Below are positions 15,001 through 21,000 of a stretch of 31,367 nucleotides of DNA, in pieces; within the stretch, counting starts at the first letter, position 1, and each line of letters begins with the position of its first letter. A program made the position numbers. The DNA lies in the NCBI GenBank assembly GCA_038209745.1, contig JBBQXJ010000057.1, forward strand, positions 1-31,367. The letters are read 5' to 3'. Origin of the DNA: Verrucomicrobiota bacterium (GTDB lineage Bacteria > Verrucomicrobiota > Verrucomicrobiia > Limisphaerales > CANJSG01).

Positions 15001-18000
15001 CCGGCCCGTGCGGCCGATGCGATGCACGTAGTCCTCGGCCTGCATCGGGAAATCGAAGTTCACCACGTGGGAAATTCCGTCCACGTCGATGCCCCGAGCC
15101 GCGATGTCCGTCGCCACCAGGACGCGGACCGCACCAGACTTGAAGTCTTTCAACGCCCGCAAGCGCTGGTTCTGCGACCGGTTGGAATGCAGCGTGCCGG
15201 TGCGGATGCCCTTGATCTCCAACTGCCGCGCGATGCGGTCGGCGCCGTGTTTCGTGCGGGAAAAGATCAGCACCATGTTCATGTCTGGCCCGTTCAGGAG
15301 ATGCGCTAGAAGCGCCGGCTTCAGATGCTTCGGCACCTCGTAGACCAACTGGGTGACGGTCTCGGCGGGGTTCGACCGCCGGCCGATCTGGATCGTCTTC
15401 GGTTGATGCTGGAACTCGTGCGTGAGCCGCTCGATCTCCGCGGAGAGCGTCGCCGAGAACATCAGCGTCTGGCGCTTCTGCGGCAATGATCGGACGATCT
15501 GCCGGATCGACGGGAGAAAACCCATGTCCAGCATCCGGTCCGCTTCGTCGAGGACGAGGTGCTGGAGATTCGAGAAGTCGGTGCAACGCTGGCCCATGAG
15601 GTCGAGCAAACGGCCCGGACAGGCGATCACGACATCCGTGCCGGCGCGCAATGCCCGAATCTGGGGACTCTCGCCCACGCCGCCGAAGACGGTCGCGACC
15701 GTCACCGTGAGGTGCTTCGCGTAGGCCAGCACATTCTCCTCGATCTGCACCACCAGCTCCCGGGTCGGGGCGACGATCAGCACCTTGGTTCCCCGGCGCT
15801 GCGATCCGGCCGCCACTGCGGCCATCTGGGAAAGGATCGGCAAAGTGAACGCCGCGGTCTTGCCGGTGCCCGTCTGGGCGATGCCGATGAGGTCGTGCCC
15901 GGCGAGCACATGGGGAATGGCGGCCGACTGGATCGGCGTGGGCTCGGTGTAGCCGGCCTCTTGGACCGCCTGCAAAATTCGGGCATCAAGCCCCAGACTG
16001 CTGAATGACATGGGCGGGGACTGTAGCGGGGAGCCAACCGTTGGCACGCACCAAAATGCGAACCCGAAGCGGTCAGTTGCCTTTGACCGCGACTTCGTGC
16101 CATCCGCCCCCGAGCACTTTGACCAGCTGGACGGTGACACTGCGGCGCATTCCTTGGACGCGGGCGTTGTTCCGCTGGAACTGGAGCGCCGAGCGGTCGG
16201 CGTCCACGACTTCGAGATAGCTGGAGGTACCGGCATCGTAGCGCGCCCGAGCGATCCCGGCCGCCTTGCGAGCCGCCACAAGCGCACGTTCGGTGGCCTC
16301 TCCCTCTTCTCCGAGGAACTTGAGCGCCGAGAGATTTTCCTGAACTTCAGCGAACGCGACCAGGACCTGCTGCCGGTAGTTGGCGACGGATTCGTCGTAG
16401 GCCGCCCGGCTGCGGGCGAGGTTCGCGCGGCTGCGCCCCCCCTGGAAAAGAGGCAGCGAAAGACTGGGCCCGATCGACCAGGTGTGGCTGTCCCACTTGA
16501 AGAGCGTGTCCAGATCGGCGCTGAGGAATCCCCCGGAGCCGGTCAACCGCAGCACGGGAAAGAACGACGCCTTCGCGATGCCGATCTTGGCGTTGGCCGA
16601 AGCCAGGTGGCGCTCGGCCGACGCGATGTCCGGACGACGTTCGAGCAGTTCCGAAGGAAGTCCCGCCGGAATGGCCGGCACGTCCGGGTGATAGTGCCCG
16701 AAATCCTCCACGCTGAATTCCGGAGCCATTACGCCGACCAGCACCGCAATGGCGGCCGAGATCGAGGCACGGCTCTGATTGAGCGACGATAGCTCCGCCT
16801 GGGCCGAGGCGAGTTCCGTGTCGGCCCGCGCTAGATCCAGCTCCGTGGCGGTGCCCGCATCGACGCGCGACTTGATCAGGTCCCGCGCCTGTTGGCGCAG
16901 GGCGATCGTCTCCCGCACGATCCCGCGCTGGTTGTCGGTGCTGCGGAGGGAGAAGTAGTTGTGGGCGATGTCCGCCTGGAGAGCCAATTGGACGTTGCGG
17001 AAATCGGCTTCACTCGCGTCGGCGTCGGCCCGGGCGCTCTCGAACGAGCGGCGGACCCGTCCCCACAGGTCGATCTCGTAGCTCAGATCGATCGGCGTCC
17101 TGAACGTGTTGTAGGTGGCGTGGCCGAAGTTCGGAAACTGGTTTGGCGAAAGCCGGTCCCGCTGTACCGCCGGGTCGAAGCTCAGCGCGGGAAAAAACTC
17201 GCTCTTCGAACTGCGCGCCAGGGCACGGGACTGGTCGATGCGCGCCACGGCGGCCCGCAACGACTGGTTGTTCGTCGCTGCCCGGTCTTGGAACTCGTTC
17301 AAGGTCGGATCGTTGAAGACCGTCCACCACGCCCCCTTCGGTTGGTTGTCGCGCGGCGCGCCCTCTTTCCAGGCGCCCATCGCGACATCCTGGAAGGCCG
17401 CCGGTACGGCATTCGTCGGGCGTTGATAATCGGGTCCGATCGTCAGCGGCCCTCCGTGGGTGCTGCACCCTGAGACCGTGAGCAGCAGCGCCAGCGCGGT
17501 CACAGTCGTGACGGCGACGCCGGTGCCGGTGCCGCCTCCATCCTTCTTTTTCGGTGTCTTCGCTTCGTCTTTCTTCCAACCGATCGACATCAGCACCGAA
17601 TAGAAAACGGGCGTGAGGAACAGGCCGAAAAGAGTCACCCCGATCATCCCGGCGAACACGGCCACACCCATCGCCCGGCGCATTTCAGCTCCGGCGCCGT
17701 GTGCGCTGACCAACGGATAAACCGCGGCGATGAACGTCACCGAGGTCATCAAAATCGGCCGGAGGCGCAGTCGGCAGGCCTCTATGGCCGCGTCGAACGG
17801 AGACAGGCCCTCGTCCTGTTTCACCTTCGCGAACTCGACGATGAGGATGGCGTTCTTACAGGCCAGAGCCACCAGCACCACCAGTCCGATCTGGGTGAAG
17901 ATGTTGTTGTCGCCCCGGCTCAGGTACACGCCGGCGATGGCGAAGAGCAGACAGAGCGGCACCACCAGGATGATCGCCAACGGCATGCGGAAACTCTCGT

Positions 18001-21000
18001 ATTGCGCGGCCAGCACCAGGAACACGAGGAGGATGCAGAGCGGGTAGATGTAGATGGCGGAATTGCCGGAAAGGATCCGCTGATAGGTCAGGTCGGTCCA
18101 CTCGTAGGCCATGCCCTTCGGCAAGGTCCGCCCGGCGATGTTGCCGATGATCTCCTCGGCTTGGCCCGAGCTGAATCCAGGCCCCGGATTGCCCATGATT
18201 TCGGCGGCGGGATAGCCGTTGTAACGCATCGCCCGATCAGGGCCATAAGACGGCGTGACCTTCACGAGCGTCCCCAGCGGCACCATCTCGCCCTTGTCGT
18301 TGCGGGTCTTGAGCCGGGTGATGTCGGCCGGATCGTCGCGGAACTGCGCGTCCGCCTGGGCCACCACCTGATAGGTGCGGCCGAACAGGTTGAAGTCGTT
18401 CACGTAGAGCGATCCAAGATAGACCTGCATCGTATCGAAGAGGTTCTTCAAGGGCACGCCCTGGGCTTTGGCCTTCTCCCGATCGATCTCGGCGTCAAGC
18501 TGCGGAACATTGATCGTGAAGCCCGAGAAGACGCCGGCCAGGGCGTTGGTCTGCCGGCTTTGTCCGACGACCGCCTGGGTGTTCTGGAACAAAGCGTCGT
18601 AGCCGAGACCTGCCCGGTCTTCGACGTAGAGCTTGAAGCCGCCGACCGTTCCCAAGCCGTTTACCGCCGGGGGCATGACCGCGAGGATGAAGGCGTCCTG
18701 GATGACCGCGAACTCCTGGTTGAGGCGCGCCGCAATGGCCGGCCCGCTCAAGTCGGGTGAGCGCCGATCTTCAAAGGGATCCAGTCCCACGAAGACGATG
18801 CCGGCGTTCGGAGCCACGCTGAAGCCGCTGATGCTGAGTCCCGGAAACGCGATCGAGTCGTGGACGCCGGGAACCTTCAGCGCGATGTCGGTCATGCGGC
18901 GCAGGACCTCGTCGGAACGGTCGAGCGAAGCGGCGTCCGTCAACTGGGCGAAGGCGACGAGGTATTGCTTGTCCTGCGTGGGAACGAAGCCGCTCGGAAC
19001 CTTCGAGAAGCTCCAGCCGGTGAGGACCAAAAGACCAGCGTAGAGCACCAGCACGACGACGCTCTTCCGCAGGATGCCGGTGACGCTCCGACCATATTTT
19101 TCGGCCGACCAGTCGAAGAAGCGGTTGAAGGGCCGGAAGATCCAGCCGAGCAGGAGATCCATCGTTTTGGTCAACCGATCCTTGGGCTCGTGATGGCCTT
19201 TCAGCAGAACGGCGCAAAGCGCGGGAGACAGCGTCAGGGAGTTGAACGCCGAGATCACGGTCGAGATGGCGATGGTGATGGCGAACTGTTTGTAGAACTG
19301 GCCGGTCAACCCGCTGATGAAGGCCGTCGGCACAAAGACCGCACACAGCACCAGCGCGATCGCGATGATCGGCCCGGTGACTTCCTCCATCGCCTTCTTC
19401 GTTGCATCCAGCGAGGACAGGCCCAGGGAGATGTTCCGTTCCACGTTTTCGACGACGACGATCGCGTCGTCGACCACGATGCCGATCGCGAGAACCAGAC
19501 CGAACAGCGTCAGGTTGTTGATGCTGAAGCCGAGCGCGAGCATCACCGCGAAGGTGCCGATGATGGACACCGGCACGGCGGCCAGCGGAATGATCGACGC
19601 ACGCCACGTCTGGAGGAACAGCGTGACGATGAGCACGACCAGGATCACGGCTTCGAAGAGCGTGTGGACCACGGCGTCGATGGAATCCCGGACGAAGACG
19701 GTCGGGTCGTAGACCACGGAGTATTCGAGGTCCTCGGGGAAGTTCTTCTTAAGCTCCTCCATCGTCCGGCGCACGTCCGTGGAGAGTTGGAGGGCGTTCG
19801 CGCCGGGGGACTGGAAGATCGGGATGGCGACAGCGGACTTGTTGTTCAGCACGGAGCGCAGCGAATAGCCGGACGCGCCGAGTTCCAGCCGGGCGATGTC
19901 CTTGAGGCGGGTGCGTTCACCGTTGGCGCCGGTCTTGACGATGATGTCGCCGAACTCGCCCACGTCGACCAAACGACCCTTGGCGTTGATCAGCAGCTCT
20001 GTTTCCACGGGTTTCTTGACCGGTTGCTGGCCGATGGCGCCCGCGGCGATCTGGACGTTTTGTTCCCGGATGGCGGCGACGACATCGCCCGCCGTCAGAC
20101 CACGGGAAGCGGCTTTGTCCGGATCCAGCCAGACGCGCATCGCGTAGTCGCCCGAGCCGAAGAGCTGCACGGAACCCGCCCCTGGAATCCGCGCCAACAC
20201 ATCCTTCACCTGGAGCGAGGCGTAGTTGCGAAGATAGATCTCATCGTAGCGGCCCTTGGGCGAAGTGAGATGCACCACCATCGTCAGATCCGGCGACTGC
20301 TTGGTCGTCGTTACACCGAGACGGCGGACTTCTTCCGGCAGCTTCGGCAGCGCCTGCGCCACGCGGTTCTGCACCTGGACCTGGGCGTCGTTGATGTCCG
20401 TCCCCAGTGCGAAGGTCACGGTGAGCGTCATCACGCCGTCGCCCGTGGCTTGGGAGAACATGTAGAGCGAATGCTCCACTCCGTTGATCACCTGCTCCAG
20501 CGGCGCGGCGACGGTCTCGGCGATGGTCCGGGGATTGGCGCCGGGATACACCGCCATCACGACGATGGTCGGCGGCACGACCTCGGGATACTCGCTGATC
20601 GGCAGAATCCGCATCGAGATCAGCCCAACGAGGAGCGTCACGATGGAAAGCACTCCGGCGAATATCGGGCGGCGAATGAAAAAATGGGAAAAGTTCATGG
20701 GATCTACGTCCGCGTACGGGGACGTTTCAGGATAGTTTTCAGGGAAGAATCGCGGTGGCGTGGCTCAAACCACCCATGCGATCCGATGGGCTCAGGGATT
20801 GGAGGCCTGAAGCTTGGCTTCTGTCTGCGGTGTCACCGTCATCCCGGCCTGTTGCACCCGCTGGAGTCCGTTGACGATGATGCGTTCACCTGCTTCGAGG
20901 CCTTCGCGGATGATGCGCTTGCCGTCGATGCTGGCCCCGATCTTCACGGCCCGGTAGGCCACGGTGTTCGACGACGTCACGGACCAGACGAATTTCTGGC

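Follow-up and report, generated by a model that had tools for sequence, protein, structure and literature searches.

A fused RND permease and outer-membrane channel with a putative internal signal peptide in a Verrucomicrobiota bacterium

One reading frame for a permease and a channel

The window analysed in this work is a stretch of 31,367 nucleotides from a Verrucomicrobiota bacterium. It carries a gene in which an RND permease is followed by an outer-membrane factor precursor. The fused gene (16073..20698, minus strand; stop codon at 16073-16075) is a single ATG-to-stop ORF in the ORF list and its translation, and encodes 1,541 aa. The frame consists, in this order, of an HAE1 RND permease, a Lys-rich cytoplasmic tail, a 13th hydrophobic segment with a lipobox and a NodT/OprM-type channel. 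A first-pass annotation had described one frame with a full permease and a full channel, which is borne out by the ORF and by the Pfam and NCBIfam matches. It had also held that the fusion is not an assembly slip. The contigs of four out of four public runs, compared over 16900-18100, cross the junction with 0 gaps, and their substitutions are synonymous at 17474 and 17450 and D1053G at 17541. No RNA run covers the stretch. The fused frame is thus confirmed as real.

The permease half (aa 3-1036; 17591..20692, minus strand) is of the HAE1 type. Pfam ACR_tran matches aa 3-1036 over profile positions 1-1020 of 1021 (1136.7 bits), NCBIfam NF000282 (RND_permease_1) matches aa 4-1036 over positions 1-1027 of 1029 (1427.5 bits against a cut-off of 1250), and TIGR00915 gives 1141.8 against 940. 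The nearest models are OqxB/MexF-like, where the OqxB model scores 1389 bits. Hydropathy peaks are located at aa 11-29, 343-361, 369-387, 398-416, 444-462, 472-499, 546-564, 880-898, 907-925, 939-957, 979-999 and 1010-1028. These give the twelve helices and two large periplasmic loops of an HAE1 RND permease. The proton relay is also present, with D-D in TM4 (...GIVVDDAIVVV) and K in TM10 (...ALACKNAILIVEF), which we take to be D407, D408 and K940 of AcrB.

The predicted mature NodT/OprM-type channel comprises aa 1078-1541, with Ser at +2 (16076..17467, minus strand). TIGR01845 (outer_NodT) matches aa 1072-1532 over profile positions 4-460 of 460 (411.2 bits against a cut-off of 210), so the whole channel precursor is present. 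Pfam OEP is matched in two stretches, the best being aa 1348-1519. OprM (1wp1) matches the channel half with E 1e-64, and residue 3 of its chain is aligned with aa 1087, which places the mature N-terminus of solved channels at the predicted cut, within 7 residues on either side. The earlier statement that Cys1078 is located where mature OprM-type lipoproteins begin agrees with this alignment, in which OprM residue 1 falls within 7 residues. The AlphaFold2 model of the channel half has a pLDDT of 82.9 (below 50 in the linker and tail region, where the model is uninformative) and exhibits an OprM-like fold, as Foldseek matched it to OprN 5azp (TM 0.86, E 1.7e-29) and OprM 1wp1 (TM 0.84).

A 388-aa periplasmic adaptor (membrane fusion protein) of the MexE/OqxA-like kind is encoded at 20792..21958 (minus strand; NF045904 352.8 bits, TIGR01730 247.8 bits, HlyD_D23 by Pfam). 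A gap of 93 nt separates the end of its gene from the start of the fused gene downstream, and 16 of 18 fused loci likewise have an adaptor gene immediately upstream. A TetR-family regulator ORF (22372..23313, minus strand; TetR_N and TetR_C_13) heads the cluster. Its HTH is placed at aa 120-163 of the ORF as listed, which makes a later true start probable. The processing enzymes and the sorting pathway of an Lgt/LspA substrate are present in the same genome, which carries lgt, lspA, lolA, an Omp85 (BamA) gene and three S26 peptidase frames.

The junction and its candidate cleavage motifs

The junction reads ...TPVFYSVLMSIGWKKDEAKTPKKKDGGGTGTGVAVTTVTALALLLTVSGC(1078)STHGGPLTIGPDY.... A cytoplasmic tail and n-region spans aa 1037-1060 (MSIGWKKDEAKTPKKKDGGGTGTG; 17519..17590, minus strand), which is Lys-rich at first and then Gly/Thr-rich; relatives have a variable P/S/G-rich spacer at this position. 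The h-region and lipobox of the putative internal signal peptide occupy aa 1061-1078 (VAVTTVTALALLLTVSG-C; 17465..17518, minus strand), as judged from the DNA read, hydropathy, the lipobox pattern and alignment, and the codon of Cys1078 is 17465-17467 (minus strand). NodT lipoprotein precursors have their lipoprotein signal at the N-terminus, and here it is located behind the permease.

The 13th hydrophobic segment (aa 1060-1078) has a KD value of 1.87 over 19 residues and passes the transmembrane threshold, so its hydrophobicity alone would also be compatible with a stable anchor that is never cut. RND pumps have a cytoplasmic C-terminus. Twelve helices precede the segment, aa 1029-1060 hold six K/R against three D/E, and only one K/R follows it, which is the charge distribution of an N-in/C-out segment.

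Cleavage sites were judged by the -3/-1 rule and by a lipobox pattern that we take to be {DERK}(6)-[LIVMFWSTAG](2)-[LIVMFYSTAGCQ]-[AGS]-C. The lipobox L-T-V-S-G-C1078 fits this pattern, and the predicted LspA cleavage point lies between G1077 and C1078. With the Cys closing the hydrophobic segment and the conserved GPDY motif 9 residues further on (2-5 in a second fused lineage), the uncut form could not reach the outer membrane. The periplasmic linker of about 60 aa that the first-pass annotation had allowed for an uncut form does not exist.

Small-x-small before G was found in 103 of the 110 distinct junction strings of the window's lineage (type A) and a lipobox in the other 7. The annotation had reported a signal peptidase I type site in most relatives (99, with 6 lipoboxes, in 111); the pattern holds, with the counts given here in place of the earlier ones. 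Over 109 distinct junctions of this lineage, position -1 is A in 97, G in 7, S in 3 and L in 2 (0.65 bits), position -2 varies freely (3.3 bits), A, L, T, V, S or G stands at -3, and 103 have G at +1. Part of this column conservation reflects descent, because the sequences are related. All 103 A-x-A↓G sites have A, G or S at -1. The uncharged stretch is long, with a median of 26 residues. Junctions of the second lineage have the form of a classical lipoprotein signal, with K/R, an uncharged run with a median of 15 residues (range 12-22) and then G-C. Among its 112 distinct junctions, [GA]-C is present in all, the full lipobox pattern fits 107 and Asp at +2 is found in none.

The junction alignments exhibit a conserved cleavage motif while the adjoining positions vary. 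The column statistics, the counts and 20 more distant representatives all agree with the motif conservation of a polyprotein processed by a signal peptidase. Judged from these alignments, the putative cleavage motifs are under selection. Another role for the conserved A (-1) and G (+1) could be in the N-terminal arm of the channel.

Fused and unfused relatives

A homologue search with aa 980-1300 was restricted to proteins of 847-2,697 aa, which excluded stand-alone channels. Both PF00873 and PF02321 are present in 120 of its 120 best matches, as the annotation had also found. Most matches are long, although its figure of 110 of 120 over 1,400 aa became 107 of 120 of at least 1,400 aa with the slightly different query range. 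A stop-free match across the junction was identified in at least 21 genomes in a sample of 401 of the phylum, that of the window included, among 150 matches listed (269 more exist). Single ORFs of 1,491-1,544 aa are present at 18 of 20 fetched loci. The other two, G282 and G342, are two genes split by stops, despite the large open-frame value in the genome-sample match list.

The second fused lineage occurs in cultured Tichowtungia and Desulfobacter, and 120 of its 120 best matches are fused. The fewest changes between the fused and unfused states are five in the RND tree (four forced by starred branches) and four in the channel tree (three forced), where both are FastTree trees with long-branch warnings. 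Deep clades of both trees retain the fused state. The fusion is recurrent, with at least three to four such changes, and by these trees it arose several times; cultured bacteria have it too. The 21 more distant 50%-cluster representatives with a readable junction consist of 14 fused proteins with a lipobox, 6 with small-x-small and 1 unfused protein.

The channels of unfused relatives start with M-K/R, followed by a hydrophobic run and A-x-A or G-C directly before VGPDY. In the alignment, the columns of their N-terminal signal peptides coincide with those of the internal segment of the fused proteins. In the close unfused relatives G225, G354 and G321, both genes are in the same frame with a single TGA between them, so one base change would be enough to fuse them. 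The unfused relatives of the window's lineage already had the signal peptidase I type of site, and the lipobox of the window is the derived state.

Proposed processing and comparison with known systems

We consider it probable that the gene product is a polyprotein, with LspA as the cleaving enzyme here and signal peptidase I in that role in most relatives. The cut would free the channel, and the pump would keep a 13th helix. The annotation had proposed this reading, and the tail charge, the conserved motif, the alignment with unfused signal peptides and the machinery genes are all as it predicts. The fused gene would be translated as one precursor. The permease would insert with its usual 12 helices and its C-terminus in the cytoplasm, and the Lys-rich tail would remain inside. 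The segment at aa 1061-1077 would then insert N-in/C-out as an internal signal peptide and drive Sec-dependent export of the 464-aa channel half; such an export signal would almost certainly have to be cut. Cys1078 would be lipidated by Lgt, and LspA would cut between G1077 and C1078. The freed lipoprotein, with Ser at +2, would be carried to the outer membrane by Lol, where BAM would help it form a trimeric OprM-like channel. The signal peptide would stay behind in the pump as a lasting 13th helix, and an ordinary tripartite pump would assemble with the adaptor encoded just upstream. In most relatives of the window's lineage, signal peptidase I would do the same job at A-x-A↓G. The layout of the gene, its conservation and recurrence, and the machinery in the genome are shown by the sequence data. 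We infer the export, lipidation, cleavage and sorting from sequence, together with a dosage benefit in which the fusion would supply the 1:1 ratio that a 3:6:3 complex needs.

The precursor might instead be cut here by signal peptidase I, which would leave the channel without a lipid anchor as in most relatives. This is unlikely. The clade of the window is nested among A-x-A↓G sequences in the tree, its unfused kin also have no Cys, and T-H-G↓G, which obeys the -3/-1 rule, is kept 5 residues past the Cys at the position of the relatives' A-x-A↓G. Against these points, L-T-V-S-G-C fits the full lipobox pattern, lgt and lspA are in the genome, the lipobox is kept in P0003 (90% identical) and in P0034, and lipoboxes arose in three small subclades of the lineage, which suggests that they are used. 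It is quite improbable that the fusion stays uncut, with the channel half tethered by the 13th helix and serving, or lying idle, as a domain in the periplasm. The hydrophobicity of the window's segment would suffice for a membrane anchor, but the uncharged run has only 12-22 residues in the other lineage. An anchor also needs no A-x-A or G-C, yet either motif fits 215 of the 222 distinct junctions and the other 7 have N-G-C or A-C. The Foldseek match 4y1k is a 'palmitoylated OprM'. The N-terminus of solved channel homologues is the lipidated residue at the outer membrane. With the short spacing between the Cys and the N-terminal motif, an uncut chain could not place its beta-barrel there.

Alternatively, most of the channel could come from translation that begins internally (at M1037 or V1066 here), with the long read-through product as a by-product. 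The sequence M1037-SIGWKKDEAKTPKKK..., with its long n-region, would resemble the precursor of a lipoprotein. Genes of this organism need no Shine-Dalgarno site, as the start of the fused gene itself lacks one, and its absence before M1037 or V1066 is therefore weak evidence here. We regard this reading as very improbable, since M1037 is part of the conserved end of TM12 and is also found in unfused pumps (L031), and a full-length chain would be produced in any case and require handling. An in-frame ATG, GTG or TTG between TM12 and the hydrophobic run is absent in 10 of 17 loci of other lineages, and no GGAGG/GAGG-type site precedes an internal start in the 19 loci examined, against GGAGG before the true start in 12 of those 17. 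Separate translation of the channel thus appears impossible in many loci. It is hardly credible that the fusion stems from an error of assembly or sequencing, or from the decay of a gene pair that lost a stop codon by chance. The single TGA in G225, G354 and G321 illustrates how such a loss could occur, but this reading is contradicted by the four independent gap-free assemblies and by the 120 of 120 fused best matches in each of two lineages; both halves also score as full-length family members and the fused state persists across deep clades.

The polyprotein reading would have a wider meaning if it holds. We tentatively propose that RND-channel fusions are a recurrent, convergent class of inner-membrane/outer-membrane polyproteins, in which an outer-membrane protein is matured by Lgt and LspA (or signal peptidase I) from a signal behind a 12-helix transporter. 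The retained signal would be the built-in 13th helix of the pump and may do more than export the channel. This helix could act like the small accessory helix AcrZ, or couple pump folding to channel release. No description of an RND-channel fusion was found in the literature searched, though databases already show the architecture. A pump-channel fusion with an internal signal, recurring in many bacteria, seems never to have been studied.

One comparable system is FbcH, the cytochrome b/c1 polyprotein of Bradyrhizobium japonicum, in which an internal signal peptide lies behind a polytopic inner-membrane protein and is cut by signal peptidase, yielding two mature subunits of the same complex. 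Neither product leaves the inner membrane, and the process needs neither a lipobox nor outer-membrane sorting, unlike the reading proposed here. The BcsA-BcsB cellulose synthase fusions of some bacteria join a polytopic inner-membrane protein and a periplasmic partner in a single chain (PMC8892547), and an internal Tat signal behind membrane helices exports the C-terminal domain of the Streptomyces Rieske protein (PMC13186574). These descriptions present the internal signal as an anchor and mention no cut. In both cases the partner remains at the inner membrane and there is no outer-membrane protein, unlike here.

Unfused relatives in the same phylum (e.g. L038-L046) have permeases 69-72% identical and adjacent channels 44-52% identical to the halves of the window's protein. 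These channels carry ordinary N-terminal signal peptides ending immediately before VGPDY. The genes are set apart by a stop and a start codon; in G354 they share a frame and are divided by one TGA. The locus resembles the three-gene tripartite RND systems (MexEF-OprN, OqxAB and MexAB-OprM), which have the same three components in the order adaptor, permease and channel. The halves pass the cut-offs of NF000282 and TIGR01845, the channel model superposes on OprN and OprM (TM 0.84-0.86), and a TetR regulator is located upstream as in those systems. However, the permease and the channel are one polypeptide here, the signal peptide of the channel is internal and located behind 12 helices, and the permease would carry a 13th helix once cut.

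The fused gene and its efflux operon

The pump and the channel are encoded by a single ATG-to-stop ORF of 1,541 aa (16073..20698, minus strand), as seen in the ORF listing and its translation, and the one stop-free frame that had been claimed for both full domains is thereby borne out. The Pfam matches are ACR_tran over aa 3-1036 (positions 1-1020 of the 1021 in the profile) and OEP in two stretches within the C-terminal third. The NCBIfam model NF000282 (multidrug RND permease) was matched in full with 1427.5 bits against a cut-off of 1250, and the OqxB model came second with 1389 bits. 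All 12 expected helices of the pump half were recovered by hydropathy. The NCBIfam model TIGR01845 (NodT-type outer-membrane factor) was also matched in full, at aa 1072-1532 (profile 4-460 of 460) with 411 bits against a cut-off of 210. Since this profile already takes in the signal peptide at its start, the channel half counts as an entire precursor and more than a mature domain.

Apart from the merger of its second and third genes, the locus is organised as an ordinary efflux operon. A TetR-family ORF (end 22372) stands at the head of the cluster, and the gene of a MexE/OqxA-like periplasmic adaptor (20792-21958, minus strand) ends 93 nt upstream of the fused gene. Packed between these two is a 136-aa ORF without a Pfam match (21955-22365, minus strand), which overlaps the start of the adaptor gene by 4 bases and may be a genuine small member of the operon. 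The neighbours are a PLD-family protein (8633-10414, plus strand), an Ada-type regulator/methyltransferase with Ada_Zn_binding, HTH_18, and MGMT domains (13216-14325, plus strand), and a DEAD-box helicase (14470-16287, minus strand). The helicase ORF as listed runs into the 3' end of the fused gene, so the true start of the helicase is probably a later one. The window genome has about 16 other OEP-matching frames, all stand-alone (219-637 aa), and the fused gene is the only fusion.

The junction is crossed with 0 gaps by contigs of four public metagenome runs, one of which may be the window's own source. Near the junction these contigs differ by synonymous substitutions (17474 and 17450) and by an Asp1053-to-Gly change within the spacer. 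No RNA run was listed among those that contain the junction. The best 120 matches to aa 980-1300 all carry both Pfam families and 107 of them have at least 1,400 aa; this search admitted proteins of 847-2,697 aa only, so the frequency of unfused forms cannot be read from it. The gap-free contigs and the fused relatives confirm the statement of the first-pass annotation that the fusion is no assembly slip. Its homologue counts stand for the presence of both families in 120 of 120 matches, and its figure of 110 proteins over 1,400 aa, obtained with a slightly different query range, compares with 107 of at least 1,400 aa here. The depth of the metagenome contigs jumps about tenfold at window positions 17802-17883 (about 450-590 vs about 50 in X1; about 5 in X16), and many short contigs terminate at 17824-17857. 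This jump marks a conserved pump helix common to many other organisms sampled and is no feature of the fused gene.

Junctions of the fused lineages

The 13th hydrophobic segment of the window protein was located at aa 1060-1078 by hydropathy. Six Lys/Arg and three Asp/Glu lie between TM12 and this segment, and one Lys/Arg lies in the 32 residues beyond it. The segment terminates in L-T-V-S-G-C1078 with Ser at position +2. PLTIGPDY begins six residues past C1078, and its GPDY nine residues past. Five residues past C1078, at the position of the A-x-A|G of relatives, the window protein has T-H-G|G (window 17450-17464, aa 1079-1083), which may be a remnant of the ancestral signal-peptidase-I site or may itself be an additional usable one. 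The linker has pLDDT below 50 in the AlphaFold2 model.

The junctions of the window's own lineage (type A) were compared in the window protein and 120 matches. A GPDY-type motif was found in 118 of the 121 (absent from the homologues P0037, P0052, and P0119), giving 109 distinct junction strings whose columns were anchored on GPDY. The sequences are related and column conservation is inflated by kinship, with which the following values are to be read: position -1 (GPDY -6) has A97, G7, S3, and L2 (0.65 bits of entropy), position -2 (GPDY -7) is almost free (3.3 bits), position -3 (GPDY -8) has A70, L12, T11, V7, S4, and G2 (1.82 bits), and position +1 is G in 103 (0.41 bits). From N to C, the stretch before the motif consists of the Lys-rich pump end, a variable Pro/Ser/Gly spacer, an Ala/Gly/Thr stretch, and a Leu-rich core next to the cut motif. 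Judged by its sequence, it has the classical n-h-c layout and obeys the -3/-1 rule. Candidate cut sites were assigned by this rule and the lipobox pattern. A second script sorted 110 distinct type-A junctions into 103 of the small-x-small signal-peptidase type and seven lipoboxes (the window protein P0001 and its homologues P0003, P0034, P0079, P0084, P0096, and P0105).

The phylum survey covered 401 sampled genomes. Among the 150 matches listed (with 269 further matches), at least 21 genomes, including the window's own, have a stop-free match over the whole junction, and at least 11 have stop codons inside the junction-spanning match. Twenty loci were fetched, of which 18 are single ORFs of 1,491-1,544 aa and those of genomes G282 and G342 are two genes each. 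The latter (G282:C10 and G342:C4) had been candidate fusions with open-frame lengths of 1,594 and 1,631, and were rejected when translation gave two ORFs split by stop codons; reliable fusion calls are matches unbroken over the junction, not open-frame length. Seventeen of the 18 single ORFs belong to other pump lineages. In all 17, K/R is followed by a short hydrophobic run, and [GAS]-C stands 2-5 residues before VGPDY, as it does in OprM.

A search with one of these loci returned a second fused lineage (type B), with both families in all of the best 120 matches and at least 1,400 aa in 109. Its members of about 1,500 aa include the cultured Tichowtungia aerotolerans, two Kiritimatiellota/Pontiellaceae isolates, and three Desulfobacter species; the corresponding entries are locus L026 and proteins P0127, P0214, P0222, P0224, P0236, and P0239. 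The full lipobox pattern is present in 107 of 112 distinct type-B junctions, the remaining five have N-G-C, and none has Asp at +2. The uncharged run of type B has a median of 15 residues (12-22), not long enough to serve as a stable anchor. Among the best 150 matches in a library clustered at 50% identity, 30 cross the junction in one stretch. The 21 readable junctions comprise 14 fused with a lipobox, six small-x-small, and one unfused, and some of these representatives have MdtB/C-like pump tails.

Proposed processing of the precursor

The best reading of these sequences is that the fused precursor would be cut at the end of the internal signal. The C-terminus of RND pumps is cytoplasmic, so the hydrophobic segment that follows would have to insert N-in/C-out and export the downstream part. 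The cut motif is kept while the adjoining positions and the entire spacer vary. The internal segment can be aligned, column by column, with the signal peptides that unfused channels carry, and the predicted cuts coincide. Residue 1087 of the fused protein aligns with residue 3 of the OprM chain, and the channel model superposes on OprN, OprJ, SilC, and OprM, including an entry titled 'palmitoylated OprM' (AlphaFold2 and Foldseek). In these proteins the first residue is the outer-membrane lipid anchor. Genes for Lgt, LspA, LolA, and an Omp85 protein are present in the window genome, together with three S26 peptidase frames.

An uncut chain, in which the channel half stays attached to the pump through the 13th helix, is very unlikely. 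The uncharged stretch of type A has a median of 26 residues and is long enough for an anchor, but 0-9 residues separate the hydrophobic segment from the channel N-terminus, and with the geometry of such channels this gap would leave an uncut chain unable to span the periplasm. Synthesis of the channel from an internal translation start is more improbable still. In ten of the 17 other-lineage loci, the stretch from TM12 to the hydrophobic run lacks any in-frame start codon (ATG, GTG, or TTG), and a GGAGG/GAGG-type site precedes none of the internal candidates in 19 loci, whereas GGAGG precedes the true start in 12 of 17. The missing ribosome-binding site before M1037, the candidate internal start in the window protein, is uninformative because the true start of the fused gene also lacks one. 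As the predicted cut comes right after the signal peptide, the peptide would remain on the pump, which in its mature form would have 13 helices and a short C-terminus in the periplasm.

Recurrence and significance of the fusion

Pump and channel trees were constructed with FastTree from 82 fused and 19 unfused rows (101 in all); the fused ones comprise about one third of the type-A and one quarter of the type-B matches with 1,400 aa or more, together with all the loci fetched. In both trees the fused genes form at least three clades that are kept apart by unfused genes. The minimum number of fused/unfused changes is five in the pump tree (four forced by starred branches) and four in the channel tree (three forced); both trees gave long-branch warnings and are unrooted, so gains of the fusion are indistinguishable from losses. 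The nearest unfused pumps are 69-72% identical to the window pump half, and their adjoining channels are 44-52% identical to the channel half. In genome G354, the pump and channel genes are in the same frame with a single TGA between them, and the tail and intergenic stretch resemble the fused spacer; thus one substitution can fuse or split such a pair. The unfused pairs of G354 (L004/L046) and G342 (L011/L031) fall inside the fused type-A clade of the pump tree, and could represent a secondary split or an intermediate state. The unfused kin of the window lineage have signals of the signal-peptidase-I type without Cys, and the window's lipobox clade is nested among Cys-less sequences, hence the window lipobox is derived.

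Equal synthesis of pump and channel would match the 3:6:3 complex, and the fusion may secure the correct partner in a genome rich in channel paralogues. Although the genome has those stand-alone channel frames, this pump comes with a channel of its own, which makes it a natural experiment in stoichiometry and in the choice of partner. Should the cut be confirmed, signals located over 1,000 residues inside a polytopic protein would be routine substrates of the lipoprotein and Sec machineries, and the substrate range of Lgt, LspA, and signal peptidase I would be broadened. The cultured carriers, Tichowtungia aerotolerans and the Desulfobacter species, make the polyprotein reading testable, and a pump with a covalently attached 13th helix may aid structural work. 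Predictors that read only the N-terminus would overlook such outer-membrane proteins. The NCBI label of the cultured type-B examples is 'efflux RND transporter permease subunit' only, so annotations and tallies of efflux components do not show the channel half.

The architecture is already visible in databases. The first-pass annotation had pointed to JGI fusion labels, and names such as 'HAE1 family protein/NodT family ... outer membrane factor' do occur among the database matches; automatically named clusters with both families exist in the ESM Atlas. Searches through the main text of open-access papers turned up no account of natural RND-channel fusions or of internal-lipobox processing, and passages of PMC8277102, PMC3707914, PMC10924465, and PMC2448597 gave none either. 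The fused pump-channel thus has ordinary parts and an unusual manner of making them that is apparently unstudied. The cytochrome b/c1 polyprotein FbcH is a related precedent. BcsA-BcsB is one chain in some bacteria (PMC8892547), and an internal Tat signal occurs in the Streptomyces Rieske protein (PMC13186574).
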